From the IMG/VR virus record IMGVR_UViG_2648501437_000025: DNA of 38,438 bases. The stretch is one strand, 5' to 3'. The translations under genes were made by a program, and so were the position numbers. Source of the DNA: a virus. Taxonomy: Duplodnaviria > Heunggongvirae > Uroviricota > Caudoviricetes. Positions 10,380-38,438 of the stretch are shown one piece after another. The notes below the pieces were generated by a model. It was given only the letters and a program-made list of their open reading frames with translations, was not told the origin of the DNA and ran no database searches. How positions within the stretch are numbered: the stretch's first letter is position 1; every line of letters begins with the position of its first letter.

Positions 10380-10381
10380 AA

Positions 10382-18731: not shown

Positions 18732-19268
18732 TTAAGCATAATCGAACGCTTCTCTCATAGGTGAATACAAAATGAACTCTGCAACACGCAACCACTGATC
18801 AACACGACGTCGGCATGTAATCAACGCCCACTCTGGGTACTGTTCGTTTAATAACTCGGCCATCCTTCTCTTACTCATCCCTCGCCCCACATAACGCTGA
18901 CTCAGGACATTTAGTAGTCCTGGATGATCCGCCAGAACTTCACCTATAACACTATCAATTTTTAGTGCCTCTGCATCAGTGCAGTGAGTTAACCAGCTTT
19001 TTTGCTTTCCTTCGATCATCTCACGCAAAAATGCTTCCAACTCTGGTTTATCAATTCCCGCTTTTTTCAATCTGCGCAGGGCTTCATTGATGGCTGTTTT
19101 TGTCATTTTTTGGGATGCCAGCAACTGGTTAAACATATTCCCTGACCTGCCGCCGCCAATATACGACCAGCGCCCCCACATACGTAGTTTTCCCTGAATC
19201 CAGACACTTTCCAGCGTGGTGAGACGAAGGTGTTCTCCGCTTTTTCCTGTATTCGTTGGGTAAATCAT
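18732..19268 (-). CDS. Late-gene antitermination protein Q-like
   Basis: Last gene of the nin block, directly upstream of the promoter/terminator/tRNA/lysis arrangement; ATG 19268 with AGGAGGG RBS (track ORF extends to 19388); family assigned by position and size, not a confirmed motif. Confidence 0.6.
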   Translation of the reverse strand: MIYPTNTGKSGEHLRLTTLESVWIQGKLRMWGRWSYIGGGRSGNMFNQLLASQKMTKTAINEALRRLKKAGIDKPELEAFLREMIEGKQKSWLTHCTDAEALKIDSVIGEVLADHPGLLNVLSQRYVGRGMSKRRMAELLNEQYPEWALITCRRRVDQWLRVAEFILYSPMREAFDYA

Positions 19269-19555
19269 AAATATCCCTCCTTTCTCCAGATTTCTTGTGT
19301 GCGAAAAACACCTTCTGCATGCATCAGGCGTAATTCTTCTTTGGTGTAATCGCTGGTTTTTACCCGCCCGTCGATTAAATCGTGGCACGAGCTACAGGCA
19401 ATTGCTGCCTGCATATCGTGTGGCTTTATCGCTGTTCCGCACGTACCCGCCAGTCGGTAATGAGCCAGTACAGACGTTTCAGGATTGTGATTGCAGTAGC
19501 CTGGGATTCTGACCTGGCACATCTGGCCCTGCGCCGCTTTACGTAAATTCACCAT
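19265..19555 (-). CDS. ybcO: YbcO-like (DUF1364) nin-region protein
   Basis: 96-aa protein with Cys pattern CQVRIPGYCNHNPETSVLAHYRL...CSSCHDLIDGR, closely resembling E. coli prophage YbcO as I remember it. Confidence 0.7.
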   Translation of the reverse strand: MVNLRKAAQGQMCQVRIPGYCNHNPETSVLAHYRLAGTCGTAIKPHDMQAAIACSSCHDLIDGRVKTSDYTKEELRLMHAEGVFRTQEIWRKEGYL

Positions 19556-20661: not shown

Positions 20662-21156
20662 TTAGTTTTGCTGTTCTATTTTAAGCTTGATAGTTTCATA
20701 CAAAACAATAGTTGCGCCTGTTTTACATAATTCCCGACTGTCATACGCACGAGACCAATAACACAACCAATTTTCAAGCTCTTCTCGTGTATAAATTTTA
20801 CAGGCCAGCCCCTCAGCCATCTCCACAACTTCATCGCCTGGTGCGGTTAATTCGTATCCATTTAACAATAAAAAAACCGCACCAGCCATCATTGCTGTGC
20901 GCTTGTTTGCATTGGCAAATGGATGATTCTGAATCAGACTTTCAATCAATACCGATGCCAGTACAAACATGTCGTTGGTTTGCTCATACCATCGAACCAT
21001 ACTGGGACGAGACTGAGAAGAACTTAAATTATCAACACTCAGCACACCAACAGGTTCATCTGGTGTTTGAAGCTCAATTAAAAGGCGATTAATTTCAGTA
21101 AGATCATCAACCGAAAGGTAGTGCACTCCTTCAACAATCTCAGCCATAGAGCACAA
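20662..21156 (-). CDS. doc: Doc-family toxin (Fic/Doc fold)
   Basis: Contains HPFANANKRTAMMAG, a variant of the Fic/Doc HxFx(D/N)(A/G)NKR active-site motif; preceded by a small partner ORF. Confidence 0.8.
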   Translation of the reverse strand: MCSMAEIVEGVHYLSVDDLTEINRLLIELQTPDEPVGVLSVDNLSSSQSRPSMVRWYEQTNDMFVLASVLIESLIQNHPFANANKRTAMMAGAVFLLLNGYELTAPGDEVVEMAEGLACKIYTREELENWLCYWSRAYDSRELCKTGATIVLYETIKLKIEQQN

Positions 21157-21167
21157 TACCCATCATT

Positions 21168-21344
21168 ACACTTTTGAAAGATCTTCCATTGCCTTCTCGT
21201 AACGAGAAAAACCGAAATCGAAAGCATTTTTCACCTGCTCACGATGAGTGCAATTTTCATCGATAGCCGGGCGCGGAGCTGCCACAACGCTTTTATCGCG
21301 AGGGGGAATAGTCAATCGCGGGTGTTTTTTTAGTGCGTAGCTCA
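21168..21344 (-). CDS. Putative antitoxin partner of Doc (58 aa, family not recognised)
   Basis: Small ORF (MSYALKKHPRLTIPPRDKSVVAAPRPAIDENCTHREQVKNAFDFGFSRYEKAMEDLSKV) with AAGGG RBS, ending just upstream of the Doc start; below the 60-aa track cutoff. Confidence 0.5.
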
Positions 21345-21463
21345 TTGGTGTACCCTTACTTCTCCGTCCTGTTCTTTAACAAAAATTAAGTCAATACAAA
21401 ATTAGTCAGGCTAATGTTGTTAGCATAGCCTAATACCAATCGTATTCACAACCACAGTACGTG

Positions 21464-21483
21464 AAAAAACCCGCCGAAGCGGG
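21464..21483 (-). terminator. Intrinsic terminator (cUUCGg-loop hairpin + U-run) at the 3' end of the hok locus
   Basis: Identical core to the 20624 element: aaaaaa-cccgc-cgaa-gcggg. Confidence 0.6.
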
Positions 21484-21553
21484 TTAAGTGCGGGTGCGTT
21501 GAGGATGCCTGACATATCAGAGGTGGCGGGAGATTACTCTCCCGCCCGGTCTC

Positions 21554-21709
21554 TTACTCCTCAGGTTCGTAAGCTGTGAAGACAGCGACCTCCGTCTGCC
21601 CGGTTCGGATTCGTACCTCGCAGAGGTCTTTCCTCGTTACCAGTGCCGTCACTATGACGGTTAAACAGATGACGATCAGGGCGACTAACATCGCCTTTTG
21701 CTGCTTCAT
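21554..21709 (-). CDS. hok: Hok/Gef-family type I toxin
   Basis: MKQQKAMLVALIVICLTVIVTALVTRKDLCEVRIRTGQTEVAVFTAYEPEE is near-identical to E. coli HokC/Gef as I remember it; AAGGAG RBS. Confidence 0.85.
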   Translation of the reverse strand: MKQQKAMLVALIVICLTVIVTALVTRKDLCEVRIRTGQTEVAVFTAYEPEE

Positions 21710-21766
21710 AGCCTGCATCTCCTTGACCTTTCGGTCCGTAAGAGGCAATCTATATGTGACGAGCAT
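21554..21766 (-). CDS. mok: Mok (in-frame N-terminally extended reading frame over hok)
   Basis: 70-aa ORF MLVTYRLPLTDRKVKEMQAMKQQ... matches the MokC-style extension; GAGG RBS upstream of the ATG at 21766. Confidence 0.6.
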   Translation of the reverse strand: MLVTYRLPLTDRKVKEMQAMKQQKAMLVALIVICLTVIVTALVTRKDLCEVRIRTGQTEVAVFTAYEPEE

Positions 21767-21806
21767 ATAGGGGCCTCACTTCGATTTATAGTCGGGTGGG
21801 GCTTTT
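21745..21806 (+). ncRNA. sok: Candidate Sok-like antisense RNA (approximate bounds)
   Basis: Plus-strand hairpin gcctcac...gtggggc followed by TTTT at 21773-21806, antisense to the mok translation-initiation region; 5' end not determined. Confidence 0.35.
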
Positions 21807-21949
21807 ATCTATCTGCCGTTGGTGTTCATGCCCGAGGCTGATAGCCTCAAGCACCCGCAGCAATTTTACTTAATTTCCCTTTAGTCAGAAATCATTTTTT
21901 AATCTATCTTGAAACAAGACTCAAATTCACAAATAAATTAAATATAAAA

Positions 21950-22852
21950 CTAAAACTCTATTTTTTGTGCCGGACGTGAGTTTAAAATCCAGCACTCCTG
22001 ATGTGTATGATGTATAGTTAGTAGATTGTCAAACTGAGATTTCTTAGCGTCAAATTCCATTTTATTTTTAAAGTCAACATTAAAATCTCCTGTTTCAATA
22101 GAGGCAAGAGCTTTGAGTCTATTGCATTCAGCATGCATATCAATTATATCGCTAAAACCTTCGCTTTTAATTCTTTTATTAACATAGTTCGTATAAATCC
22201 CTGCATGTTTATAAGAATCCATCACAGTGTATAATCCATCACCATCAATATCTGTAGGAGATGACATCCATTTAAAAACATGTAGAAGAAAAATATTTGC
22301 TGACCAAGGAAACACCACCCCATTAGCAAATGTTTCTGAAGTACCAGAACTAAGACTTTCATTAAGATTAGTCGCACCGATTAAGATCACATCGGTTTCA
22401 AACTCGTTCCGTTTACCAGCACCTACAAAATTAAAGGTCCCGGCATAGCATTGCCCAAGATAAACAACAGCATTTTTAAGATTTGGGGCTTCCTTCAAAG
22501 CCTTCAGTAATTGGCTTGGTGGGATAGGTTTCTGTGCATCAAGTCCATGAGGGCCACCATGACCAGTTACAAACATAACTATGTTATCATATGTATTATC
22601 ATTTAAGTCATTAAAAAAAACTGCTGATGGTTTTGACTTAAAAGGATATCTAGAAGCGAGTGCAAAAGCACCATCGTAATTCATTGAAGGGCTATCTATA
22701 TATATCGAAATATCATCTGGATTGATACCTGCCTTTTCGAGGCACATCACACCAAAGACTAAATCGACAACATGACGAAATTCCACTGCAGCTTTCGAAC
22801 AAGGCAAAAACATCACCCACCTTGTGCGTTCAGACCTAAGACTCATATACAT
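21950..22852 (-). CDS. Clan CD (legumain/caspase-like) cysteine peptidase-like protein
   Basis: Motifs NIVMFVTGHGGPHG and NAVVYLGQCYAG, 37 residues apart, follow the hydrophobic strand + His-Gly ... hydrophobic strand + Cys layout of legumain/caspase catalytic dyads; AT-rich gene; alternative start at 22813 with AAGGTGG RBS. Confidence 0.55.
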   Translation of the reverse strand: MYMSLRSERTRWVMFLPCSKAAVEFRHVVDLVFGVMCLEKAGINPDDISIYIDSPSMNYDGAFALASRYPFKSKPSAVFFNDLNDNTYDNIVMFVTGHGGPHGLDAQKPIPPSQLLKALKEAPNLKNAVVYLGQCYAGTFNFVGAGKRNEFETDVILIGATNLNESLSSGTSETFANGVVFPWSANIFLLHVFKWMSSPTDIDGDGLYTVMDSYKHAGIYTNYVNKRIKSEGFSDIIDMHAECNRLKALASIETGDFNVDFKNKMEFDAKKSQFDNLLTIHHTHQECWILNSRPAQKIEF

Positions 22853-22877
22853 CCTTGGTGGTTCGAAATGTACTTAA

Positions 22878-23174
22878 TTAAAGATTAAAATTATATCCAG
22901 AGAACACTGTATTACTGAGTGATGATGGTCTTGGTAAATCACTAAAATAAAACACTTCATCAATACTCAAGTGTTCGGTAATTTTTGTGGGCATAATCTG
23001 CCCTCGCTCATTCATGCCAAAGATATCATTACCGGTTTTTAGAAAAAATGTTATTTCCACGGTAATCCTGTAACTATTGGATTTGAAAAGCATCCATTGC
23101 CCAAGATTCACACACTCTTTTACTGCATCAGAGGTATCAGGCAACTCAGAAGATTGTAACCCCGTGAATTTCAT
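22878..23174 (-). CDS. Hypothetical 98-aa protein, first gene of the AT-rich island
   Basis: ORF with AAGGA RBS 8 nt upstream of the ATG at 23174; 25 nt upstream of the peptidase-like gene; no recognisable motif. Confidence 0.5.
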   Translation of the reverse strand: MKFTGLQSSELPDTSDAVKECVNLGQWMLFKSNSYRITVEITFFLKTGNDIFGMNERGQIMPTKITEHLSIDEVFYFSDLPRPSSLSNTVFSGYNFNL

Positions 23175-23302
23175 TTTCAGTCCTTATAGCTGCTTATGTA
23201 CTGAATTGCACTAAGCAACCTTTAATACCATTGCGACGAACAACAACCGTGTGATCGCTACCACGACCACACTGAAAATATAACTTTACATATTCATTAT
23301 CG

Positions 23303-23386
23303 TCAACCCCAGCGGCAAATCGAATACACCACCAGCGCCACCGCCATCGCAATTCCTACCGTAGTGAATGCCTCAGGCCAGGTCAT
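23303..23386 (-). CDS. 27-aa hydrophobic micro-ORF, translationally coupled
   Basis: MTWPEAFTTVGIAMAVALVVYSICRWG; ATG overlaps the stop of the upstream gene (ATGA) and is preceded by AGGAGGTGA at 5-nt spacing. Confidence 0.4.
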   Translation of the reverse strand: MTWPEAFTTVGIAMAVALVVYSICRWG

Positions 23387-23778
23387 TGATTCACCTCCTG
23401 CTCAATATTTTTCAGATCATTTTCCGCATACAGTATTGCTGTCCTGGCTGCTCGTAACCGGGCTTTGGCATTTTTCTCTTCACGTTCAAGTTTTGCCACA
23501 GCTTCACGAAGAGCATCCCGCTTTGCATAGAGTGATTTAATCTCAGTCACGATGTTTTCACCGTTTCTCGCACGGTCAAGAACAAGCTCGAACGGATCTA
23601 AAGCCAATCCACACCGTTTGCAGGTAATCGTACGATTCACTTCTGAAATTGTTGTACGGATATGCTGACAGCATTTTTGCTCGACACTTTTTTCGTCGGT
23701 TATCACAACGTTGAGGAGTCCTTCCTCCTCTGATTTTGGCTGCACCAGGGTGATAACATTGTCGCCTTCATTTTTCAT
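23383..23778 (-). CDS. Zinc-ribbon + coiled-coil protein (paralog A)
   Basis: CCQH...CKRCG...DPF followed by a charged coiled-coil (EREEKNAKARLRAA); shares this architecture with the ORF at 25529..25927. Confidence 0.5.
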   Translation of the reverse strand: MKNEGDNVITLVQPKSEEEGLLNVVITDEKSVEQKCCQHIRTTISEVNRTITCKRCGLALDPFELVLDRARNGENIVTEIKSLYAKRDALREAVAKLEREEKNAKARLRAARTAILYAENDLKNIEQEVNQ

Positions 23779-24290
23779 CAGTTCACCTCCTGCGGTGGTT
23801 CCGGTAGCGGCATCCAGTGAGTTGCCTGCTCAATACCATTACCCGGCTTAATCGTTGCTTCCCCTCGCCGGAATGTGCTTCCTGTATAGCGTGCGGAGCA
23901 TATTAGCGGTTCAACCAGAGAGCTATCGAAATTCACCGAAATAAGCACGTTCTGATTCTTTTCCGGCATTCGCTCACTACAGCTTATCCATGCATCCGGA
24001 GTTGCCGGCACTGGCTGGGCGGTGTAAAGTGGAACAACTCGCCCTCCCCATTGCTTAACACTACTCTCAGCGAACACTAAATGCTCAGTCCGATAATACC
24101 CAGGGGCATCAATATCTTTTCTTTCGCTATCCCACATGTAAACCACCGGCTCTGCTTCCAGCGATGCCAGTGCGATACGAAACACATTGGCAAGCAGGCT
24201 GTCTGAAGATTGGTTATCGTGCGCCGGGTCGCTCAGGAAACCAGTGATGAATGATTTAATCTCCGCTTTTTCTCTGGTAATAGTGGTCAT
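23778..24290 (-). CDS. DUF551-domain protein
   Basis: C-terminal segment WISCSERMPEKNQNVLISVN...THWMPLPEPP resembles the DUF551 signature from memory; start placed at ATG 24290 (MTTITREK...), 1 nt after the upstream stop. Confidence 0.6.
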   Translation of the reverse strand: MTTITREKAEIKSFITGFLSDPAHDNQSSDSLLANVFRIALASLEAEPVVYMWDSERKDIDAPGYYRTEHLVFAESSVKQWGGRVVPLYTAQPVPATPDAWISCSERMPEKNQNVLISVNFDSSLVEPLICSARYTGSTFRRGEATIKPGNGIEQATHWMPLPEPPQEVN

Positions 24291-24291
24291 T

Positions 24292-24510
24292 TCAGCTTTC
24301 CTTATATGGGTTGATTTTGTTGTGCAATGTGTTGAACGACGCCCATACCACGTCGTTATACAATTCAATAACTGGCTCAATTATTTTCCCGATTGCCCAG
24401 ACAAAAATTAGCGGGGATATCGGTATCATCAACACGATAAACAGAATGAGAAACAAAAATTCTGTCGCTCTACTTTTTCGCGGATATTCTTTTCTGAATA
24501 ATGTAGGCAC
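24292..24510 (-). CDS. Small membrane protein (72 aa)
   Basis: Hydrophobic core FLFLILFIVLMIPISPLIFVWAIG; stop immediately before the DUF551 start. Confidence 0.45.
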   Translation of the reverse strand: MPTLFRKEYPRKSRATEFLFLILFIVLMIPISPLIFVWAIGKIIEPVIELYNDVVWASFNTLHNKINPYKES

Positions 24511-24511
24511 A

Positions 24512-24727
24512 TCACTCTCCTTTGTTGCTTCTCAAAATTTTATGCCCTGGCGCAAAAGCACGCGTTTTGTCGACGCTTATTCGCCACCCATCTTTACGTG
24601 CCTCTTTTGCACTGCCAGCCCATGACGTACCGATATACTCACCAAAATCTGGCGACTGATATTTGCCATCCGTACACTGGCGGCAATCACAATAGAGATG
24701 CATGGTGTAACTTGCGGCAATACTCAT
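24512..24727 (-). CDS. Hypothetical Cys-rich 71-aa protein
   Basis: ORF with CDCRQC motif, packed in the nin operon. Confidence 0.4.
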   Translation of the reverse strand: MSIAASYTMHLYCDCRQCTDGKYQSPDFGEYIGTSWAGSAKEARKDGWRISVDKTRAFAPGHKILRSNKGE

Positions 24728-25087
24728 TCAGCCTCCTTTGATGCCTGTGTTTACAACCAGGCAGGCTTCCTTGAGTACCCAGTCAATAGCGTCTTTCCAT
24801 GCTCCGGTTTCAACTGGCGGATTCTCACGCCGTACCTGTTCATAAAAGCGCACAGCTTTAACCAGCCCTTCTGATGACACCGGGGCTGGCGGGGCCGTGA
24901 ATAACGCCTGAATTTCATAGTTCGGTCTGTCGTTACAATCTTCTTTTGTCGGGGCATATTTCCAGTCACCAAACCACGACTTACCCTGAGAGTCCGTAAC
25001 GCCTTTTTTCACGTAGCGATACCGCCATGCAACTGGTTTTGCCTGCCCTGCCGTTTCATGCCCTTCCTGATAATTAATCTCACTCAT
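24728..25087 (-). CDS. Hypothetical nin-region protein (119 aa)
   Basis: ORF with ATGA overlap to the upstream small ORF. Confidence 0.45.
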   Translation of the reverse strand: MSEINYQEGHETAGQAKPVAWRYRYVKKGVTDSQGKSWFGDWKYAPTKEDCNDRPNYEIQALFTAPPAPVSSEGLVKAVRFYEQVRRENPPVETGAWKDAIDWVLKEACLVVNTGIKGG

Positions 25088-25260
25088 TCATCGCCCCACT
25101 CATCACAATATGCTTCGACCGGAGTTTTTCCTGCTTCATAATCATCACGCCATGCTTCAGCATCAGCGGCACTTCCACCGCGTAACTCTGCATAATCCAT
25201 TAACAGTTCATGCCATTCTTCAAAACTGGCGTTATATTTAGTTGAACCAAAATCAGCCAT
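25084..25260 (-). CDS. Small acidic protein (58 aa)
   Basis: MADFGSTKYNASFEEWHELLMDYAELRGGSAADAEAWRDDYEAGKTPVEAYCDEWGDE from my translation; stop overlaps the next start; below the track cutoff. Confidence 0.4.
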   Translation of the reverse strand: MADFGSTKYNASFEEWHELLMDYAELRGGSAADAEAWRDDYEAGKTPVEAYCDEWGDE

Positions 25261-25435
25261 TTTGCTCTTCCTCTTCGTCTTTTATTTCGTGATATGAGTA
25301 ATTGCAGTAGTTAAAGAAAATTTCTTTTGCTTCGTCCTTTATTTCATCTGGTGTCGCATCATCATCCACTTCGAATACATCTTCAAAATCTCCACCAGCT
25401 ATTCCCGTTTCAATAATTATTTTGAACTTTCGCAT
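25253..25435 (-). CDS. Small highly acidic protein (60 aa)
   Basis: Asp/Glu-rich (FEVDDDATPDEIKDEAKE...KDEEEEQNG); a GC hairpin sits between a GGAGG element and its ATG. Confidence 0.45.
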   Translation of the reverse strand: MRKFKIIIETGIAGGDFEDVFEVDDDATPDEIKDEAKEIFFNYCNYSYHEIKDEEEEQNG

Positions 25436-25528
25436 TTCATTACCGCCCTTTCGGGCGGCCTCCTGATGTTCTGAGGGTGCAGAAATCCCTCCGGTTAAGG
25501 ATTAAATTTTTAACACTACTAAATTTAA

Positions 25529-25927
25529 TTATTCAGTTCTGGATTTTGTCGCTCTGCGTATCCGCGCTTTCGCGTTACGCTCAATCTGAATTAACTTTTC
25601 TATATTTTTCCGCCTTTCCTGTTCCTCCTGGCGCAATAGCCTTACATCATCTGCCAGTCTGGTTTCTCTTTTCGCCACTGAGAGCATCCAGTCAAACGGC
25701 TCCACAACTGCACCGCAGTTTTTACAGCGGACCTGACGCTCTTTTTCGTCAACCCGGACAGAAGCGTGATGGCAGTATGGTCTTTCCGATGGCTCATAAA
25801 GAAAATTAACCTGATTACGTGGGTCATCCTCTTTTACCGGAAATAAAACAATATTACTTAACTCATCTTCTGGATTTATTTCCACGTCACTCTCCTTTGA
25901 TGCGAATGCCAGCGACGCGTGGCACAT
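25529..25927 (-). CDS. Zinc-ribbon + coiled-coil protein (paralog B)
   Basis: YCHH...CKNCG...EPF then coiled-coil ERNAKARIRRA; start placed at ATG 25927 (track start 25966 is TTG). Confidence 0.5.
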   Translation of the reverse strand: MCHASLAFASKESDVEINPEDELSNIVLFPVKEDDPRNQVNFLYEPSERPYCHHASVRVDEKERQVRCKNCGAVVEPFDWMLSVAKRETRLADDVRLLRQEEQERRKNIEKLIQIERNAKARIRRATKSRTE

Positions 25928-26309
25928 TAACTTCCACAATGCGCACAGTTGGTTTGTACATCTCAATTGCTGTCAGCCAGTCAGCGCCAGTCATGCGCTT
26001 TTCTGCATCGCCATTAGTCCACTTAACCGGTACACCAATAGCCTTCATCGCGATTTCTATTTCCCCGGCAATGGCGCTTTTTCCACAACCAGTAAAACCA
26101 GAAACAACGACAAGAACTTCGCCTTTGGCTGGTTTTATTTCCCGTGCTTCCAGTTCTGCAATGCGCTTCTCTGCGGCTTCCAGCTCAACACGCAGCTTCC
26201 CTACCGTTAGCGCAATTTCCTCGTTCTCCTGATCGCGGCGTTTTATGTATTGCTGGTTTCTTTCCAGTTCATCCAGTAATGCCAGCACAACCTGAGGTGT
26301 GACCTTCAT
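25887..26309 (-). CDS. Hypothetical protein with P-loop-like GFTGCGKS segment
   Basis: Coiled-coil N-terminus, then VVVSGFTGCGKSAIAG; start uncertain (ATG 26309, or TTG 26426 per the track). Confidence 0.4.
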   Translation of the reverse strand: MKVTPQVVLALLDELERNQQYIKRRDQENEEIALTVGKLRVELEAAEKRIAELEAREIKPAKGEVLVVVSGFTGCGKSAIAGEIEIAMKAIGVPVKWTNGDAEKRMTGADWLTAIEMYKPTVRIVEVNVPRVAGIRIKGE

Positions 26310-26382
26310 ACGAAATGCCAGCAATTTTTGTGGTGTGGCTGCTATTTTTATTGCTTCTGCCGCCCCACGCAGTGCCTGATAG

Positions 26383-27126
26383 TCAATCTTGCTCACTGGT
26401 TGCCTCCTGGCAAAGTTGGGCGACAATATCGCGATATTTATTCAGCTCCCGCAGCGCGGCACATACTCGCTCCCATTTCCGGATATCACTTTTCGCCCGA
26501 CGCAGTTCGCGGTTTGCCTGTCGCAGCGATGGCAGAACCAGATTATCCACTCGCTTCTCAAGCGGCTGCACAATGCCCGCCACAGTTTCTGTTTTAATAT
26601 CTTCCTGTGTTGCAGCTTCCTGTACTGGTAACGCAACACATGCAGGCTGAGGAAAGGCTTTACCATCAGTTTCCGCTACCGATGCCGCTTTCGGCTCTGC
26701 TGGTAAATTACCGCCCGGCATGCAGTAACGAAATTTACCGTTCTGATTAACACGAATCAGACGACCTTTGCTGATTGCCATTGCCAGCGTTGAAGCCACT
26801 TTGCGTGATGTGGTGCCGAAAAACGTAGCCAGTTCATCCGCCGTTTGTGGGCCACGTTGTTCAATCGTCGCGGTTAAATCGCACTCTGAGATTTTCGCTA
26901 CTGTTGCCATGGTGGTTTCTTCCGGCAGCTCTGCCGGCGCTGGCTGTTCCTGCTGAACGTTGTTATCAGCCACGCGCCAGGTGTATACGCTTTTATCAAC
27001 GAAGCCAGCCTTTTTCAGTTCCCACAGCTCGTTCAGCACTTCTTCTCGACTGATATCAAGTCGCGTAGCCAGTTCTACCGACGTGGCTTTTCCCATCGCT
27101 TTCAGTGCGTCAAAAACGGTCTCCAT
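26383..27126 (-). CDS. Winged-helix DNA-binding protein (two WH-like segments)
   Basis: Repeated pattern of the [30 protein letters not shown] type; ATG 27126 with GGGAGGAAA RBS. Confidence 0.5.
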
Positions 27127-27148
27127 TAAAATTTCCTCCCGGTAAAAA

Positions 27149-27895
27149 TTACTTCTCAATACCTGGCTGACCAACATTCGGGCGCCAGCTCTCCCAGTTA
27201 AAATTCACCCAGCGCCCGCCGTTCATGGTCATGCGATCCATAATCCGCTCGCCGAGCAATGTTTTCATGGCCTCATAGTTCAGGTTTGTCAGCATCCCCA
27301 CGCTGCGCATCGACGCTGTCCGGCGATCAACAATCTGGTGCAGTACCACCTGCTCGTTTTTCGTCTCGCGCTGAATACCAATTTCATCAAGAACCAGCAG
27401 ATCAACTTCGCACAGTTCCCGCAAAAATTTTTCGCCTGACTGCCCGTCGTCATAGCTGGCGTGCAGGGCGCTCATAACATCAGCCACGGTAACCACAATC
27501 ACTGTCTGGCCATCTTTCAGCAGGCGATTCCCGATAGCCGCCGCCAGATGGTTTTTTCCGGTACCAGGTTTTCCGCTGAACGCGAAATTTGTGCATCCGG
27601 TAACCAGTTCGTCAGCGATAGATTTCGCCTGACTCAACGCGTATCGCTGGCCGTCGTTCTGCACCTGGTAATTCGCAAACGAGCATTTGCGGTGCAACGG
27701 CTGTATGCCGGAGCGATTCAGGATTTTTTCCACCCGCAACTGACGATTCTGACGGTTGATCTCCTCACAACGTTTCTGGCCTTCTGCAAGTTGCCACTCG
27801 CGCCACTCCGCCACCGTCCTGAATGGCGCGGTTACATGTGGCGGGGCCAGTCGGCGGATGCGTTCCAGAACGCCGCCTGTCGCAATATTTTTCAT
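27149..27895 (-). CDS. ydaV: DnaC-like replicative helicase loader (IstB-like AAA+ ATPase)
   Basis: Walker [16 protein letters not shown] and Walker [10 protein letters not shown]; position after the initiator-like gene. Confidence 0.9.
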
Positions 27896-27901
27896 GGTTC
27901 G

Positions 27902-28759
27902 TTACCCCCTGAAGCCTGGCGGGATCGCACTGTCCGGCAACGAGACGGTGTTAACCTGTCTGAGCAACGTCTCAGGCCGAACACCTTTCGGCGCGAACAA
28001 GCCCTGGTATTCATTGGCGATGCTATGTCGAATCACCTGCTCAGGGGTAAAACCCTGCTGGCGGAATTTTTCCAGCTCCCGTATCGCCCCGTTAGCGCCC
28101 TGCTCCGTTCGAATCGGTTTACGCAATGCATGGCGAAATTCAACCCACTCACGCCAAAGCGAGACAGAAATCCAGTTCGGCAAAGCAATATCCAGAGGGT
28201 CAAACTTTTTGACACCTCGATTCCCCCGGGGGGGATTTAGGGGGGGATCTGTTTTTAGATCTTTATCTGTATCTTTATTAGTTGCCTTTGTGTTGACATC
28301 ATGTTCAAACACCACTTCAACATCTGTTTGAACACCTGTTAAATTTCTCTCTTGTTTTGTTTGAACATCTGCTTCCTTTCTGCTTCTTCTGGCCTGAACA
28401 GATGCTTTTCCTGCGGCTGATTTTTTGGTTAATTTTTCCCTGACTGATGCCAGATCTTCCTCAATCCGAAGATGCACCCATTCCTCGCCGTTATCGCAAA
28501 AAAACTCCCGCAAGGATGGTTCAACATCAGCCCATCGCTCGTTAGTCAGACGGGCAATTTTTGCCAGCCTGTTTTTGGGTATTGGCTTTCCTGTTTGCCA
28601 GTAATTGAACATCAGCAACAAATACGCACCGTGCTCCTCTGCTGACAAATGCATGGTGTCAGCCAGGTAATCAGCTATGTACAGTTGCATGTATGGTAAT
28701 GCGGCCATAATTGCCCCGTATGATGCTGCCCGGTTGCTTAGAATAAGCACAAACAGCAT
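27902..28759 (-). CDS. ydaU: Replication initiation-associated protein (YdaU-like, DUF1376)
   Basis: N-terminal YIADYLADTMHLSAEEHGAYLLLMFNYWQTG pattern; 285 aa; located upstream of the DnaC-like gene. Confidence 0.7.
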   Translation of the reverse strand: MLFVLILSNRAASYGAIMAALPYMQLYIADYLADTMHLSAEEHGAYLLLMFNYWQTGKPIPKNRLAKIARLTNERWADVEPSLREFFCDNGEEWVHLRIEEDLASVREKLTKKSAAGKASVQARRSRKEADVQTKQERNLTGVQTDVEVVFEHDVNTKATNKDTDKDLKTDPPLNPPRGNRGVKKFDPLDIALPNWISVSLWREWVEFRHALRKPIRTEQGANGAIRELEKFRQQGFTPEQVIRHSIANEYQGLFAPKGVRPETLLRQVNTVSLPDSAIPPGFRG

Positions 28760-28771
28760 GAAAACTTTTGC

Positions 28772-29194
28772 TTAATGAACAATGACAGAATCGTCGGAAG
28801 ACCCGCCACCGCTGAAATATGCTTTACGGTAAACGGCCTGGACTGCATCATCATGCGCATCAATTGCCGTACTCAACGCTTCCTGCGCCGCCAGTAATGC
28901 ACGGCGTTCCAGGGTATCGAAGATGCAGAGTCGGTGACGCAGCTCGCGCGGAAGAATTGCCAGAACCGCAGGGATCAGTTTCTGAATTTTTTCCCTTTGC
29001 GCTTTCGTTTCACCTTTCAACCAACGGTGATAGATATTCTGCTGATTGTTCCAGTCCTTGCCTGGTACCAGGGGCAATTCGCCGCCCCCCTGGCGCAGAT
29101 ATTCTTCAGTAATTGCGTTAGCAACCCACGCCTGCCCTTTTTCGGCTGCTAGGGCTAACAACACTGATTCGATGTGCTCATGCCTGATTTTCAT
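28772..29194 (-). CDS. ydaT: YdaT-like protein
   Basis: 140-aa protein MKIRHEHIESVLLALAAEKGQAWVANAITEEY... closely resembles Rac YdaT from memory; start overlaps the Cro-like stop (ATGA). Confidence 0.7.
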   Translation of the reverse strand: MKIRHEHIESVLLALAAEKGQAWVANAITEEYLRQGGGELPLVPGKDWNNQQNIYHRWLKGETKAQREKIQKLIPAVLAILPRELRHRLCIFDTLERRALLAAQEALSTAIDAHDDAVQAVYRKAYFSGGGSSDDSVIVH

Positions 29195-29433
29195 GAATCA
29201 ACCGCTCCTATGCTGTTTTCGCTATGCTTACCGTCTGGGGGGAATACATCGTCAAGTCCACAATGAGCACCAAGCCGATTAAGGGTGGAAACAATTTTTC
29301 TGCACTCCTCTAGCCCAGGGGTACGAAAATTTGCTTCGTAATTTGCCAGTCGGCTTTGTATCCACCCTAGCTGAACAGCGAGTTGTCTTTGAGACAGACC
29401 AAGTTGTTTTCGATATGTTGAAATTTTGTTCAT
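29191..29433 (-). CDS. Cro-like XRE-family HTH regulator
   Basis: HTH segment LGLSQRQLAVQLGWIQSRLANYE; first gene of the leftward operon, GGAGG RBS; divergent from the repressor gene. Confidence 0.7.
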   Translation of the reverse strand: MNKISTYRKQLGLSQRQLAVQLGWIQSRLANYEANFRTPGLEECRKIVSTLNRLGAHCGLDDVFPPDGKHSENSIGAVDS

Positions 29434-29529
29434 TAAAAACCTCCGACGACAATTTTAAACACACCTTGTGTTTTACGGTCAAGCTATTTTGTGTTTTATA
29501 TAAATCACGATTCGTGATACAAGGACGAA
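29434..29529. promoter_or_regulatory. Divergent promoter/operator region of the immunity switch
   Basis: Two copies of TTGTGTTT(TA), a 15-nt perfect palindrome ATCACGA-T-TCGTGAT just upstream of the repressor RBS, and a minus-strand TTGACC/17 nt/TTTAAA promoter-like element. Confidence 0.55.
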
Positions 29530-29949
29530 ATGGAAAAAGAAAACGAAAAAATTGCCGCTAGTAGGCTCAATGACAAAATTGCAATGCGTCTTAAAGAGCG
29601 CAGGCAGAAGCTTGGTTTATCTCAAGGAAAACTTGCTGAAATCTGCGGATGGACGCAATCGCGTATAGGTAACTATGAGGCGGGCAGCAGAAATGTTGGA
29701 GTGCATGATGCTGTCGTCCTGGGAAAGGCGCTGGGCATATCTCCTCCTGAGCTCCTCTTTGGGGAAAAAGACTCTTCTGAATTGTGGTTAAATGAATCCC
29801 AACGAAAACTTCTTGAGTTGTTTAACCAGCTACCGGGCTCAGAACAACAACGAATGATTGAGCTATTTGAAGTCCGGCTAAAAGAAATCGACGAGTATGT
29901 AGAAAAATATTTGAGGGGCAGGCTTAAAGATACCCCCCCACCGGAGTAA
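29530..29949 (+). CDS. Prophage repressor (CI-like XRE HTH, no peptidase domain)
   Basis: HTH segment LGLSQGKLAEICGWTQSRIGNYEAG; divergent from the Cro-like gene; followed by its own terminator. Confidence 0.7.
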   Translation: MEKENEKIAASRLNDKIAMRLKERRQKLGLSQGKLAEICGWTQSRIGNYEAGSRNVGVHDAVVLGKALGISPPELLFGEKDSSELWLNESQRKLLELFNQLPGSEQQRMIELFEVRLKEIDEYVEKYLRGRLKDTPPPE

Positions 29950-29970
29950 TGATCTTGCTATCACAGTAAT

Positions 29971-29994
29971 ATGCCAATCAGCCCGCTATCAGCG
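29971..29994 (+). terminator. Intrinsic terminator after the repressor gene
   Basis: gcccgc-tatca-gcgggc hairpin followed by T7. Confidence 0.6.
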
Positions 29995-30041
29995 GGCTTT
30001 TTTTGTACCATCATCATATGACACGCCACCATAAAAACACA

Positions 30042-30076
30042 TTTTGTGTTGACATACAAAAACCCTTTGTGTTTAA
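30042..30076 (+). promoter_or_regulatory. PL-like early-left promoter with operator repeats
   Basis: TTGACA, 17-nt spacer, TTTAAT, overlapped by two TTTGTGTT repeats also present in the 29434-29529 region. Confidence 0.5.
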
Positions 30077-30251
30077 TAAGCATATCCAAACAACGCCCCA
30101 CCGGAGAACGGCAGGACAATACCTCGAGTTATCCAGCCACTGAACAGGGCTAAGTAGCCAGCCTGAGGCATACGAACATGACGGCAGTTGTTGATTGATA
30201 CAAAGCGCAGTAGATAAAACGTTCCGCCACCCGGCGTTAAGGGGAAAAAAG

Positions 30252-30386
30252 ATGGTGCATTACGAAGTAGTTCAGTATTTGATGGATTGTTGCGGTATCA
30301 CTTACAGCCAGGCTGTGCAGGCTTTACGTAGCAACGACTGGGATCTCTGGCAAGCAGAAGCCTCTATCCGCAACAACAAGATGTGA
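30252..30386 (+). CDS. ydaG: YdaG-like small protein (44 aa)
   Basis: MVHYEVVQYLMDCCGITYSQAVQALRSNDWDLWQAEASIRNNKM; ATG at 30252 with AAGGGG RBS; matches Rac gene order. Confidence 0.55.
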   Translation: MVHYEVVQYLMDCCGITYSQAVQALRSNDWDLWQAEASIRNNKM

Positions 30387-30396
30387 GGTGCGAAAA

Positions 30397-30552
30397 ATGC
30401 AAAAAATCGACCTCGGCAATAACGAATCCATGGTGTGCGGCGTGTTCCCCAACCAGGATGGAACGTTCACCGCCATGACTTATACCAAAAGCAAAACATT
30501 TAAAACCGAAACTGGTGCGCGCCGATGGTTGGAGAAGCACACAGTAAGCTAA
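30397..30552 (+). CDS. ydaF: YdaF-like small protein (51 aa)
   Basis: My translation: MQKIDLGNNESMVCGVFPNQDGTFTAMTYTKSKTFKTETGARRWLEKHTVS; RBS GAGGTG; below the track cutoff. Confidence 0.5.
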   Translation: MQKIDLGNNESMVCGVFPNQDGTFTAMTYTKSKTFKTETGARRWLEKHTVS

Positions 30553-32311: not shown

Positions 32312-35300
32312 ATGAGCACAAAACCACTCTTCCTGTTACGGAAAGCGAAAAAATCATCCGGTGAACCTGACGTCGTCCTGTGGGCAAGCAACGATTTTGA
32401 ATCGACCTGTGCCACTCTGGACTACCTGATCGTTAAGTCAGGTAAAAAACTGAGCAGCTATTTTAAAGCTGTTGCCACGAATTTTCCTGTCGTTAATGAC
32501 CTGCCCGCTGAAGGTGAGATCGATTTTACCTGGAGTGAACGCTATCAACTCAGCAAAGACTCCATGACATGGGAACTAAAACCGGGAGCAGCACCAGACA
32601 ACGCTCACTATCAAGGCAATACCAACGTCAACGGCGAAGACATGACTGAGATTGAGGAGAATATGCTACTCCCAATTTCTGGCCAGGAACTGCCCATTCG
32701 TTGGCTTGCTCAACACGGCAGCGAAAAACCGGTAACGCACGTTTCACGCGACGGACTCCAGGCATTATACATTGCTCGGGCTGAAGAACTACCGGCTGTT
32801 ACTGCCCTGGCTGTTTCCCACAAAACCAGCCTGCTCGACCCGCTGGAAATTCGCGAACTCCACAAACTGGTTCGTGACACTGACAAAGTTTTCCCTAATC
32901 CTGGTAATTCAAACCTGGGACTGATAACTGCTTTTTTCGAAGCATACCTGAACGCTGACTACACCGATCGAGGACTGCTGACAAAAGAGTGGATGAAGGG
33001 TAATCGTGTTTCACACATCACTCGCACGGCTTCCGGTGCTAATGCTGGCGGCGGAAACCTCACCGATCGCGGCGAAGGTTTCGTACACGATCTGACGTCA
33101 CTGGCGCGCGACGTAGCCACTGGCGTACTGGCCCGTTCAATGGATCTGGACATCTATAACCTTCATCCGGCACACGCTAAACGCATTGAGGAAATTATCG
33201 CTGAAAATAAACCGCCCTTTTCTGTTTTCCGCGACAAATTCATCACCATGCCTGGCGGGCTGGATTATTCCCGCGCCATCGTGGTTGCGTCCGTAAAAGA
33301 AGCACCAATTGGGATCGAGGTCATCCCCGCGCACGTCACTGAATATCTGAACAAAGTACTGACTGAAACCGATCATGCCAACCCTGATCCGGAAATCGTG
33401 GATATTGCCTGCGGTCGCTCCTCTGCCCCGATGCCGCAGCGAGTAACAGAAGAAGGAAAACAGGATGATGAAGAAAAACCGCAACCATCTGGAACAACGG
33501 CAGTTGAACAGGGAGAGGCTGAAACAATGGAACCGGACGCAACTGAACATCATCAGGACACGCAGCCGCTGGATGCTCAGTCACAGGTAAATTCTGTTGA
33601 TGCGAAATATCAGGAACTGCGGGCAGAACTCCATGAAGCCCGAAAAAACATTCCATCAAAAGATCCTGTCGATGCCGATAAATTGCTTGCTGCATCACGT
33701 GGTGAATTTGTTGACGGAATTAGCGACCCGAACGATCCGAAATGGGTAAAGGGGATCCAGACTCGCGATTGTGTGTACCAGAACCAGCCAGAAACGGAAA
33801 AAACCAGCCCGGATATGAATCAACCTGAGCCAGTAGTGCAACAGGAACCGGAAATAGCCTGCAATGCCTGCGGCCAGACTGGCGGGGATAACTGCCCTGA
33901 CTGTGGTGCGGTGATGGGCGACGCAACATACCAGGAAACATTCGATGAAGAGAGTCAGGTTGAAGCTAAGGAAAATGATCCGGAGGAAATGGAAGGCGCT
34001 GAACATCCGCACAATGAGAATGCTGGCAGCGATCCGCATCGCGATTGCAGTGATGAAACTGGTGAAGCGTCAGCTCCTGTAGCAACTGAAATCATGTGGC
34101 CGTCATATTTCGAGCCTGGCCGCTATGAAAACCTCCCGAACGAGGTTTATCACTCCGCCAACGGAATAAGCAGCACGATGCTGAAGGATGCCCGTATCAG
34201 CCTGATGTATTACCATGGACGGCACATTGCCGGAACTATTCCGAACGAGGAAAGTGATGCACTGCTGCGTGGGCGGATCATTCACAGCTATGTTCTGGAA
34301 ACGGATAAATTCGCTGATGAATATGCCATTCCGGTACCGGTTCCTGAATATGTGGTTACTACTTCTAACGAACTGATCGCCATCATTAAAAAACACAATG
34401 CCAGTCTGCCAGCACTGATGACACCAGAGCAGATGAAAGAGTGGATCGAAAGCTACAACAGCACTCTTATACAGCCACTGTCTGTAAGTGCCGGGGCCGA
34501 AGAAACAGGCATCCTTTACGGTTCGCTTCCGGTGGAATTTCGGCGTATTCCTGAGGGGGAAAAACACACAGCATCAGCAATGAAAGCCTGTATTAAAGAA
34601 TACAACGCAAGCCTCCCTCCTCTGTTGAAAACCAGTGGAGCACGGGAGCAGCTTCTGGATCAAATTGAAACTGTAGCCCCAGAACTAGCAAAAAAAGAAC
34701 GTGCTAAATCTTTGCCTTACAACATCAGTGGCACAAAAGAGCAATTAACCGAAATCGCACGGCAAATTCGCCCGGAACTGGTGACTCTGGAGGACTGGCA
34801 AAAACGCCAGCAAGAAGAAAACGCCGGGAAAACGTTTATCAGTCCGGATATGTATGAACAGGCAAAAAATATTCACGCGGCACTACAAAACAGTACCGAT
34901 GCAGCAAGGTTACTCAACCACCCGGATCGCAAATCTGAAATCAGCTATTTCGGGTTTGATGAAGAAACCGGGCTGGAAATCAGGGTCCGTCCTGATATCG
35001 AAATCCGGCTGCCATACGAAAGCATTTGCGCTGACGTGAAGTCAGTCAGCCTCGGTTATGTGCGACAGGAACGACTTAAAGATCGCCTGCACCGTGAAAT
35101 TATTGAACGTGATTATCATCTCAGCGCCGCAATGTATTGCGATGTGGCAAACCTGGACAAATTTTTCTGGATCTTCGTCAACAAAGATGCTGGCTATCAC
35201 TGGGTGGCAGTCGTGGAAGCCTCGCAGGAACTCCTGGAACTTGGTCGACAGGAATATCGCCGGACGCTACGCCAGATAAACGAAGCCCTGGAGACAAACA

Positions 35301-35383
35301 ACTGGCCAGCACCGATTACCGAAAGTTATACCGACGAATTAAACGACTTTGATCTTCGTCGTCTTGAAGCACTGAGCATCTGA
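32312..35383 (+). CDS. recE: RecE-like exonuclease VIII (long form, 1023 aa)
   Basis: C-terminal part carries acidic/hydrophobic segments consistent with a PD-(D/E)XK nuclease domain of RecE type; acidic low-complexity middle region; followed by an annealing-protein gene. Confidence 0.8.
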
Positions 35384-35394
35384 GGAAGGACACA

Positions 35395-36447
35395 ATGAAC
35401 GAATTAACTCAACAAGAAAATATTAACTCTAATGTTGCGGTTTTCAGCCCTCAGTCCCTGGCTGCAATTCAGACATTTTCCCAGGTAATGGCTTCCGGCA
35501 TGGCTACTGTACCGGAACACCTCCGGGGAAATCCATCAGACTGCATGGCCATCACCATGCAGGCGATGCAGTGGCAAATGAACCCTTACGCAGTAGCTCA
35601 GAAAACTTTCGTTGTGAATGGTGTGCTCGGATATGAAGCGCAACTGGTTAATGCCGTAATCAGTACTCGTGGGCCGCTAACCGGGCGTATTGAATATGAC
35701 TGGTTCGGGCCGTGGGAAAAAATTATCGGGAAATTTGAAATCAGGAAGAGCGACAAAGGGAAAGAATATCGTGTACCTGGCTGGAAGCTGGCCGATGAAA
35801 ACGGGATCGGTGTTCGTGTCCAGGCAACACTACGCGGCGAAAGTAAACCACGCGTACTGGAATTACTTCTGGCGCAGGCCAGAACACGTAACTCAACGCT
35901 ATGGGCCGACGATCCTCGCCAGCAGCTTGCCTATCTGGCGCTGAAACGCTGGGCGCGCCTTTATTGCCCCGAAGTGATTCTTGGAGTGTACACCAGGGAC
36001 GAACTGGACGAGCCACAGGAAAAAATCATTAATCCGGTTCAGGAACATAAAAACACTTCCGCTTGCCGCGCTGAACGTGAAACAACAATTATTGAGCAGG
36101 ATGCCGGGGAAAACTGGATCGATGCTTTCCGTGAACGTATTGAGCAGGCACAAAGCACCGGGGAAACAACAGCACTTCGCCAGGAAGTGGAAGATCATAA
36201 AAATACACTTGGCGCTCTCTATACGGAACTTAAAGGAAAAGTGGTTCAGCGTCATCACCGTCTCAATGCTATTGCCCGTATCGAGAAGATGATAAATGAC
36301 CTACCTTCTTCAGGTGATCCAGAAGCAGAACAAAAATTTACTGCTCTGGAAAATACGCTGAATGCTGCCCGGCCACATCTGGGTGAATTATATGAGGCGT
36401 ATAAAACGACACTGACAGATATGAAACCAGAATATATCGGCTCCTGA
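35395..36447 (+). CDS. RecT/Redbeta-family single-strand annealing protein
   Basis: N-terminal region (AITMQAMQWQMNPYAVAQKTFVVNGVLGYEAQLVNAVI) resembles the Redbeta/RecT annealing-domain layout; paired with recE. Confidence 0.6.
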   Translation: MNELTQQENINSNVAVFSPQSLAAIQTFSQVMASGMATVPEHLRGNPSDCMAITMQAMQWQMNPYAVAQKTFVVNGVLGYEAQLVNAVISTRGPLTGRIEYDWFGPWEKIIGKFEIRKSDKGKEYRVPGWKLADENGIGVRVQATLRGESKPRVLELLLAQARTRNSTLWADDPRQQLAYLALKRWARLYCPEVILGVYTRDELDEPQEKIINPVQEHKNTSACRAERETTIIEQDAGENWIDAFRERIEQAQSTGETTALRQEVEDHKNTLGALYTELKGKVVQRHHRLNAIARIEKMINDLPSSGDPEAEQKFTALENTLNAARPHLGELYEAYKTTLTDMKPEYIGS

Positions 36448-37202: not shown

Positions 37203-38438
37203 ATGTCTAAATTACCAACAGGTGTCGAGATTAGAGGTAGATACATTCGCATCTGGTTCATGTTTCGAGGAAAACGATGTCGGGAAACATTAAAAGGCTG
37301 GGAGATTACAAACAGTAATATTAAAAAGGCCGGAAATTTAAGAGCGCTGATAGTTCATGAAATAAACTCCGGTGAATTTGAGTATTTAAGACGTTTTCCC
37401 CAGTCCAGCACTGGGGCAAAAATGGTGACAACGAGAGTCATAAAAACGTTCGGAGAGCTTTGTGATATCTGGACAAAAATTAAAGAGACAGAGTTAACAA
37501 AAAACACAATGAAGAAAACGAAATCACAATTAAAAACACTCAGAATAATAATTTGTGAAAGTACCCCGATATCACATATTCGTTATAGCGATATCTTAAA
37601 CTACCGGAATGAACTGCTGCATGGAGAAACGCTTTACCTGGATAATCCAAGATCCAACAAAAAAGGAAGAACCGTGCGCACAGTTGATAACTATATCGCC
37701 CTGCTCTGTTCGCTGTTGCGTTTTGCGTATCAGTCGGGATTTATATCAACCAAACCATTTGAAGGAGTAAAAAAATTACAGCGAAACAGAATAAAGCCTG
37801 ATCCGTTATCTAAAACAGAATTCAATGCATTAATGGAAAGTGAAAAAGGACAGAGCCAGAACTTGTGGAAATTTGCCGTTTACTCAGGACTTCGTCACGG
37901 GGAACTGGCAGCTCTGGCGTGGGAGGATGTGGATCTCGAAAAGGGAATAGTGAATGTCAGAAGAAACCTGACGATACTTGATATGTTCGGTCCCCCAAAA
38001 ACAAATGCCGGGATCCGAACAGTAACACTACTGCAGCCTGCTCTTGAAGCACTGAAGGAGCAATACAAACTGACCGGGCATCATCGCAAAAGCGAAATCA
38101 CCTTTTATCATCGGGAGTACGGCAGAACCGAAAAGCAAAAACTGCATTTTGTTTTCATGCCCAGGGTGTGTAACGGAAAACAAAAACCTTATTACTCGGT
38201 AAGCAGTTTGGGGGCAAGGTGGAATGCAGCAGTAAAACGTGCTGGTATTCGCCGCCGTAATCCGTACCATACGCGGCATACTTTTGCCTGCTGGCTGTTG
38301 ACGGCAGGAGCGAACCCGGCATTTATAGCCAGCCAAATGGGGCATGAAACTGCGCAGATGGTGTATGAAATTTACGGTATGTGGATTGATGACATGAACG
38401 ACGAACAGATAGCCATGTTGAATGCGCGGTTATCGTAG
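37203..38438 (+). CDS. intR: Tyrosine integrase (lambda Int family)
   Basis: 411-aa ORF with C-terminal catalytic region (...RHTFACWLLTAGANPAFIASQMGHETAQMVYEIYGMW...); stop codon is the last triplet of the window. Confidence 0.9.
   Translation: MSKLPTGVEIRGRYIRIWFMFRGKRCRETLKGWEITNSNIKKAGNLRALIVHEINSGEFEYLRRFPQSSTGAKMVTTRVIKTFGELCDIWTKIKETELTKNTMKKTKSQLKTLRIIICESTPISHIRYSDILNYRNELLHGETLYLDNPRSNKKGRTVRTVDNYIALLCSLLRFAYQSGFISTKPFEGVKKLQRNRIKPDPLSKTEFNALMESEKGQSQNLWKFAVYSGLRHGELAALAWEDVDLEKGIVNVRRNLTILDMFGPPKTNAGIRTVTLLQPALEALKEQYKLTGHHRKSEITFYHREYGRTEKQKLHFVFMPRVCNGKQKPYYSVSSLGARWNAAVKRAGIRRRNPYHTRHTFACWLLTAGANPAFIASQMGHETAQMVYEIYGMWIDDMNDEQIAMLNARLS

Follow-up and report, generated by a model that had tools for sequence, protein, structure and literature searches.

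Ea22 is described as an N-terminal segment and a coiled coil that carry swappable C-terminal domains, DUF551 among them (PMC10834534), and another study reports a pro-lysogenic role for it (PMC7093339). The TraR homologs offer another comparison: they act through RNA polymerase binding (PMC9239242; PMC8614690). Closest of all to the two proteins described here are the profile phrog_1621 and the protein L0139 of the Stx phage 933W. Both of our proteins match the profile over nearly their full length, L0139 belongs to the A subfamily, and there is no difference in kind.

We analyzed a stretch of 38,438 nucleotides, referred to as the window, which is a Rac-like lambdoid prophage of Escherichia (E. 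coli). We found that it encodes two members, ORF A and ORF B, of a catalogued but uncharacterized phage family, and that A and B represent old subfamilies which module exchange between phages has made neighbors. Both belong to the delayed-early rightward operon of the prophage (Table 1).

Table 1. Coordinates of the two family members, their parts and the surrounding genes in the window
Feature	Position	Strand	Remarks
ORF A, 131 aa, A-type	23383..23778	minus	ATG overlaps the DUF551 TGA by 1 nt (TGATG)
A zinc ribbon, residues 35-64	23587..23676	minus	C37, H39, C53, C56; DPF turn
A basic motif E101-K-N-A-K-A-R-L-R109	23452..23478	minus	From sequence and alignment
ORF B, 118 aa, B-type	25529..25885	minus	Likely start GTG 25885-25883; stop 25531-25529
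5' extension from ATG 25927	25886..25927	minus	Overlaps 3' end of Ea22-like gene
B zinc ribbon, residues 36-65	25691..25780	minus	Ligands C38, H40, C54, C57; EPF turn
B long helix, residues 63-117	25535..25699	minus	Leu heptads L84/L91/L98
B basic motif E102-R-N-A-K-A-R-I-R-R111	25553..25582	minus	Invariant motif
Direct repeat GAAATAAA[A/T]CCAG, 13 nt, upstream copy	26129..26141	minus	Codons E-I-K-P, in Ea22-like gene
Direct repeat GAAATAAA[A/T]CCAG, downstream copy	25870..25882	minus	Codons E-I-N-P, at start of B
Integrase	37203-38438	plus	Leftward early gene
RecT	35395-36447	plus	Leftward early gene
RecE/exonuclease VIII	32312-35383	plus	Leftward early gene
cI-like HTH repressor	29530-29949	plus	Leftward early gene
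YdaT-like	28772-29194	minus	Rightward early operon, first in the listed order
DUF1376 replication protein	27902-28759	minus	Rightward early operon
DnaC/IstB-like	27149-27895	minus	Rightward early operon
DUF1627	26383-27177	minus	Rightward early operon
Ead/Ea22-like gene	25887-26426	minus	Immediately upstream of ORF B; PF13935 match 4e-20
DUF551 gene	23778-24380	minus	Immediately upstream of ORF A; its pairing with A-type genes is conserved
Hok/Mok-type host-killing ORF, 70 aa	21554-21766	minus	From sequence reading
ybcO-position ORF	19265-19555	minus	Placed by position: relatives carry DUF1364/YbcO there
DUF1133/Q-like antiterminator	18732-19388	minus	Further downstream in the rightward early operon

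An earlier note on this DNA had placed both ORFs in the nin region, and the flanking genes support that placement. ORFs A and B lie between the replication genes (DUF1376 and DnaC-like) and the DUF1133/Q-like antiterminator, and therefore in a nin-equivalent region. Several small genes, DUF4014 among them, separate ORF B from the DUF551 gene, and a DUF1367 gene follows ORF A and hok in the minus-strand operon. Megablast resolves the region into a mosaic whose segments are common in E. coli, and the whole 4.4-kb arrangement is absent from every complete E. coli genome. Promoter and terminator scans of positions 21000-30500 stayed at background level.

The same operon carries other accessory DNA. 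An AT-rich insert at 21950-23174 on the minus strand separates ORF A from hok; its GC content is 0.30-0.39, while that of the window is 0.46. Of its two ORFs, one (21950-22852, minus) encodes a protein of 300 aa that gives a Peptidase_C13/caspase-like match (2.9e-6, 27.4 bits), and the other (22878-23174, minus) has 98 aa. In relatives, hok comes directly after A. PADLOC returned no match for the ORFs of the insert, which looks like a moron or candidate defense cargo. In another AT-rich patch (20662-21345, minus), between hok and the DUF1367 gene, a Fic/Doc-family ORF (164 aa, Pfam 1.7e-11) lies just downstream of a 59-aa ORF, and the two are a possible toxin-antitoxin-like pair.

Where does ORF B begin? 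The earlier note had it extend over 25529-25927, from an ATG at 25927. We found that the GTG at 25885, which gives a protein of 118 aa, is most likely the real start. An AAGGAG Shine-Dalgarno sequence at 25892-25897 lies 6 nt upstream of this GTG, and the TGA stop of the upstream Ea22-like gene falls at 25887-25889. The phrog_1621 profile match begins only at residue 16 of the 132-aa form that the ATG would produce. Moreover, relatives have an ATG exactly where B has the GTG, RefSeq annotates 357-nt genes for them (WP_001296187.1 is 118 aa), and in an alignment of 33 sequences the homologs from other genera start at the equivalent residue. Together these observations moved the start to the GTG. 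The 5' extension probably lies outside the translated B protein; its frame stays open because it is coding in a different Ea22-like fusion, the relative P0377.

The corrected start leaves a gap of 1 nt between the upstream stop and the GTG of B. Such spacing, like the overlap at the start of A, suggests translational coupling of B to the Ea22-like gene and of A to the DUF551 gene.

The relatedness and common architecture of A and B, which the earlier note had read from motifs, held up in the pairwise alignment, structure prediction and family search that it had proposed. BLASTP aligned A and B with 32/109 identities (29%) and 50% positives (E=1e-13, the value for this one comparison). Both proteins match phrog_1621, ORF A at 4e-48 (residues 1-130 on profile positions 5-134) and ORF B at 2.5e-55 (residues 16-131 of the 132-aa form on positions 2-120). 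AlphaFold2 gave A and B one architecture. A low-confidence, flexible, acidic N-terminus leads into a small zinc ribbon of three strands (at about 43-46, 51-54 and 60-61), and the rest is one long helix, residues 62-130 in A and 63-117 in B. Mean pLDDT was 86 for A and 75 for B, and the long helix exceeded 90 in both monomer models.

The alignment locates the conservation precisely. Both window ORFs have the zinc-ligand pattern C-x-H...(13 residues)...C-x-x-C followed by (D/E)PF. Across 33 sequences from both subfamilies, the invariant columns are, in B numbering, C38, H40, C54, C57, F64, L84 and R92, and then E102, N104, K106, A107, R108 and R110. A shared ERNAKAR core had been proposed; NAKAR is indeed common to both proteins (IERNAKARIRR in B, EEKNAKARLRA in A), whereas the full ERNAKAR string is confined to B, since A reads E-E-K-N-A-K-A-R. 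Thus A and B both carry the defining features of what we call the NAKAR family, namely the zinc ligands with (D/E)PF and a long helix containing E-[RK]-N-x-K-A-R-x-R-R.

Could one or both ORFs be functionless remnants in this prophage? Many phages can do without the family, and phage vB_EcoM-606R7 has a disrupted B copy, which would be compatible with decay. However, both ORFs in the window are full length and retain all the invariant residues, their ribosome-binding sites and apparent translational coupling are intact, and comparison with four relatives gave dN/dS values of 0.06-0.27, indicating purifying selection on both. We consider the chance of decay close to negligible.

The family is large. 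An exhaustive profile search recovered 2010 cluster representatives (50% identity) at E<=1e-3, and 577 at E<=1e-10. These include high-GC and low-GC members and one group that is longer, at about 180 aa, owing to an additional C-terminal extension. In word-indexed searches, the A-type and B-type proteins come out as two separate subfamilies, and every match is labelled either 'hypothetical protein' or 'putative bacteriophage protein'. B-type genes occur in Escherichia, Shigella, Klebsiella, Kluyvera, Yokenella, Salmonella, Erwinia, Serratia, Pluralibacter, Yersinia and Morganella, and A-type genes in Escherichia, Salmonella, Raoultella, Enterobacter, Citrobacter, Klebsiella, Kosakonia and Atlantibacter. 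The Stx phages 933W (whose L0139 is an A-subfamily member), VT2-Sakai and ArgO145 carry the family. Distant members lie on metagenomic phage contigs of 43-50 kb, two of them with a gene for an integrase, portal or resolvase, and another is found in a Solirubrobacterales MAG.

We calculated column statistics, in B numbering, for 88 diverse family members. The three cysteine ligands are present in 88/88 and the histidine in 84/88, within a ribbon consensus of V-D-E-x-x-R-x-[VLI]-x-C-x-x-C-G-A-x-[LIV]-D-P-F-D. The helix motif E-[RK]-N-A-K-A-R-x-R-R is almost invariant (E in 75 members, N in 75, K in 78, A in 71 and R in 79). Hydrophobic residues recur every 3-4 positions from 77 to 116, with leucine at the heptad d positions 84, 91 and 98 in 60, 55 and 81 of the members, respectively, and a conserved glutamate at the a position 102. 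Positions 98 to 112 are all conserved, including the outward-facing N104, K106, A107, R108, R110 and R111. Among these, N104, A107, R108 and R111 share one face of the helix (i, i+3, i+4, i+7), and K106, R110 and a Lys-rich tail contribute more positive charge.

The acidic and hydrophobic N-terminal part has a motif of its own, [DN]-[VI]-[IV]-x-[FL]-P (B residues 10-16). Its variable position is proline in 12/88 members, and P0284 and P0272 read D-N-V-V-P-F-P. The C-terminal tip of SSB, DDDIPF, resembles the D-N-V-I-P-F-P form of this motif. Further resemblances that serve as leads are the arginine-rich motif of P22 N (N-A-K-T-R-R) and YabA.

No Pfam, NCBIfam or PADLOC model matched A or B above threshold, and a Pfam scan of the 88 diverse members and 10 long members (175-241 aa) gave zinc-ribbon and coiled-coil noise only. 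Neither protein matches a known anti-phage defense component: against the defense models of PADLOC-DB 2.0, B had no match and A only marginal ones of coiled-coil or zinc-ribbon type (LmuB 1.1e-3, Cas12f 2.9e-3). Profile searches of the PDB with both family alignments (A1 and A2) returned weak coiled-coil matches and no relative (best, mitofusin 1, E=0.0043, for A2), and among solved and predicted viral structures no relative emerged beyond generic zinc ribbons and coiled coils. The related PHROGs are phrog_4865 and phrog_8538; phrog_1621 itself is labelled 'unknown function', and the RefSeq member is WP_001296187.1. Our literature search found no paper on the family, WP_001296187, phrog_1621 or L0139, and a review of exo-xis modelling mentions neither L0139 nor L0140.

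How did two such divergent genes come to lie in one operon? The earlier note had suggested a duplication within the prophage followed by specialization. On this reading, one gene was copied here or in a recent ancestor and the copies diverged toward different targets, and the position of two homologs 1.75 kb apart, in one operon and one orientation, speaks for it. However, the divergence of A and B reaches the root of the family. Over the conserved core they are 30% identical. Of 86 cluster representatives from the whole family, 82 resemble B more closely than A does, and 64 resemble A more closely than B does. A neighbor-joining tree has their last common ancestor at its root. Moreover, they have no nucleotide similarity (best blastn E=0.71), and each subfamily is spread across many genera with its own conserved neighbors.

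Pairing of the two is also rare. An HMM scan of 40 related loci found two copies in 2, E. coli M19 (L003) and a metagenomic contig (L020) whose second match is partial, and detected no third copy in the window. A search for related loci with family alignment A1 gave mainly close enterobacterial loci. Among 5426 complete E. coli genomes, the B allele is present in 1679 and the A allele in 76 (at >=90% nucleotide identity). Only 5 genomes, those of the related mouse isolates M6 to M19, have B and A on one contiguous segment. We therefore conclude, from the family-deep divergence, the lack of DNA similarity, the separate neighbors and the rare pairing, that A and B are ancient paralogs joined by mosaic recombination. 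As a local event, duplication is unsupported, and we judge it highly improbable.

A different reading of the arrangement is that A and B form a functional pair, for instance as the halves of a heterodimeric coiled coil or of a two-component system, and depend on each other. Both are predicted to form long helices that agree in heptad register and in the invariant motif, and B followed by A is also the order in E. coli M6-M19 and in phage vB_EcoM-606R7; in M19 (L003), both genes are intact and in the order seen in the window. This reading is hard to reconcile with 38/40 related loci that have one copy, with the very different allele counts above, or with 606R7 itself, where A is intact (97% identical) and B lacks residues 36-71, which hold the zinc ribbon. 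Since a single copy is the rule and the B of 606R7 is broken, pairing is not obligatory, and mutual dependence is quite unlikely.

Phage 606R7 (L047, ON470580.1; 4220-4527 and 2305-2697) is a third case of an A-type gene accompanied by a B-type gene. Its B copy has an internal deletion that causes a frameshift, which could reflect redundancy or a sequencing error. This single case hints at redundancy rather than distinct roles. Separately, a metagenomic phage contig (L020) has a full-length member at 5882-6232 and, about 5.5 kb upstream, a weak second match at 2-151 (E=6.8e-7) that is cut by the end of the locus, so an unrelated phage may carry a pair as well.

Each subfamily travels with its own neighbors. 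B-type genes follow an Ea22-like gene and precede DUF7167 and small genes, a cassette found in the nin region in the window, in a second locus (L001) and in E. marmotae (L042), and in the leftward (pL) exo-xis region of the Stx phage ArgO145. A-type genes follow DUF551, or an Ea22-DUF551 fusion, and precede hok in the nin regions of Salmonella and E. coli prophages. In 933W-like Stx prophages, an attR-proximal module contains AntA, the TraR-like L0141, L0140, L0139 and hokW, and L0139 shows this DUF551, A, hok order as well.

Mu-like E. coli prophages (L035-L040) carry a 135-aa A-type relative, P0169, that is 67% identical (gene 10001-10408). Its gene follows a DUF2786/DUF7168 gene in the part of the semi-essential early region that Gam and GemA/Mor flank. 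Membership of the family is thus not confined to lambdoid phages.

The association with Ea22 goes beyond adjacency. In several relatives, the Ead_Ea22 N-terminal and coiled-coil part is fused in frame to a B-type protein, with the junction ...AELEAREIKP|EDELSNIV..., and the fusions involve at least 3 different N-terminal modules in several genomic contexts (for example P0001, P0370 and P0006). The window keeps direct repeats that would give rise to such a fusion. The 13-nt direct repeat GAAATAAA[A/T]CCAG occurs at only two sites in the window, and its copies bracket the C-terminal module of about 80 aa of the Ea22-like protein together with the start codon of B. Removing the sequence between the repeats reproduces the fusion P0001. 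Relatives without the bracketed segment encode in-frame Ea22-like::B-type fusion proteins. Within the bracketed module, we also noticed a Walker-A-like GFTGCGKS (26076-26099, minus).

PF13935 (Ead_Ea22) has no match in stand-alone A or B and is present in the upstream gene and the fused relatives. Since B-type proteins are fused after the Ead_Ea22 part, the B-type module is another portable Ea22 cargo domain, and its use as a C-terminal module mirrors the described swapping of DUF551, found in the Stx-phage Ea22 variant V2, and the lambda C-terminal domain (PMC10834534). It differs from these domains in having no sequence or fold similarity to them, and in the window B is a separate gene. By adjacency and fusion, the family is in the functional neighborhood of Ea22, as judged from gene arrangement.

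What might the proteins do? We give even chances, taken as a whole, to an explanation in which they are a phage early accessory family, with A and B joined by mosaicism and each combining a zinc ribbon with a basic zipper helix. First, going by the column statistics, the long helix probably dimerizes, as a leucine-zipper-like coiled coil. Second, the basic patch, with N-x-x-A-R-x-x-R on one face of the helix, and the zinc ribbon would together form the functional surface, which may bind a polyanionic ligand, most likely DNA or RNA; we put this forward tentatively, at somewhat less than an even chance. The occurrence of distant members on metagenomic phages and in the Solirubrobacterales MAG argues for a ligand that is constant across hosts of different phyla. 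Third, the proteins would act as dispensable modulators of early development or host physiology, near Ea22. This is the least certain of the three steps.

The resemblance to bZIP proteins bears on the mode of binding. In these eukaryotic transcription factors, a basic region, N-x2-A-A-x2-[CS]-R, is followed by a leucine zipper. The B helix likewise has leucine heptads (L84/L91/L98) contiguous with a basic helix that contains an invariant asparagine and, three residues later, an invariant alanine. However, the basic segment of A and B, N-A-K-A-R-x-R-R, is C-terminal to the zipper. The helix of A-type proteins continues for about 20 residues beyond this segment, which is therefore internal to it, and a splayed, bZIP-style grip on DNA is therefore unlikely there. 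Because the placement and sequence of the motif differ, and no bZIP Pfam model matched the 88 members (E<=0.01), A and B are not bZIP proteins; by analogy, the likeness is a lead on how they may work.

Conservation all round the motif would fit a protein-protein interface equally well. The proteins might then, as the main alternative, bind a conserved host machine, with RNA polymerase or the Ea22-like/DUF551 neighbor as partner in place of nucleic acid, and serve as modulators of transcription or host takeover. We regard this as possible, if doubtful. The TFIIB zinc ribbon (PF08271, Zn_Ribbon_TF), an RNA polymerase-docking domain, gave the best resemblance in both sequence and fold: it is likewise a small three-stranded zinc ribbon, 11/88 family members match it, and the TFIIB N-terminal domain is the best Foldseek match (1pft, E=0.29). 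However, every score is under the 29-bit gathering cut-off of Pfam, with B at 7.8e-6 and 25.8 bits in its 132-aa form and 6.5e-6 and 26.0 bits in its 118-aa form, and A has no match. The first knuckle of A and B is C-x-H rather than C-x-x-C, and a single helix of 55-69 residues follows the ribbon where TFIIB has its cyclin-fold core. By score, and having no four-Cys ribbon, the proteins fall outside PF08271.

Genomic neighbors also favor a host partner. In 933W, L0139 lies two genes from the TraR-like L0141, and TraR homologs including lambda Orf73 bind RNA polymerase (PMC9239242). The fusion and apparent translational coupling with Ea22-like genes, and the all-round conservation of the motif helix, which suits a protein interface, point the same way. 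Like TraR/DksA proteins (lambda Orf73, 933W L0141), A and B are small helical proteins, predicted to bind zinc, of the same lambdoid accessory regions. In A and B, however, the domain order is reversed, with the ribbon preceding one long helix, and they lack the N-terminal DxxDxA motif, the C4 finger and any match to PF01258 (at E<=1), which places them outside the DksA/TraR family. Moreover, an invariant Arg/Lys-rich patch that persists across phyla is more typical of nucleic-acid binding, the ligand class we favor.

A broader version of the proposal would make these proteins phylum-spanning early regulators. Each would be a zinc-ribbon 'reverse leucine zipper' that presents the N-A-K-A-R-x-R-R face to DNA, RNA or the transcription machinery, either free or as Ea22 cargo, and tunes the lysis-lysogeny choice or host takeover. 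We think this unlikely. If it were true, A and B in two-copy prophages could recognize different sites or heterodimerize.

The presence of two copies in one prophage reflects ordinary lambdoid mosaicism. The more useful result is the family itself, which has no Pfam model, structure or literature and yet is large, with a nearly unvarying zinc site and basic motif, and is worth characterizing. Its recurrent fusion to Ead/Ea22 ties it to the exo-xis and nin accessory genes that influence lysogeny and the induction of Stx prophages.
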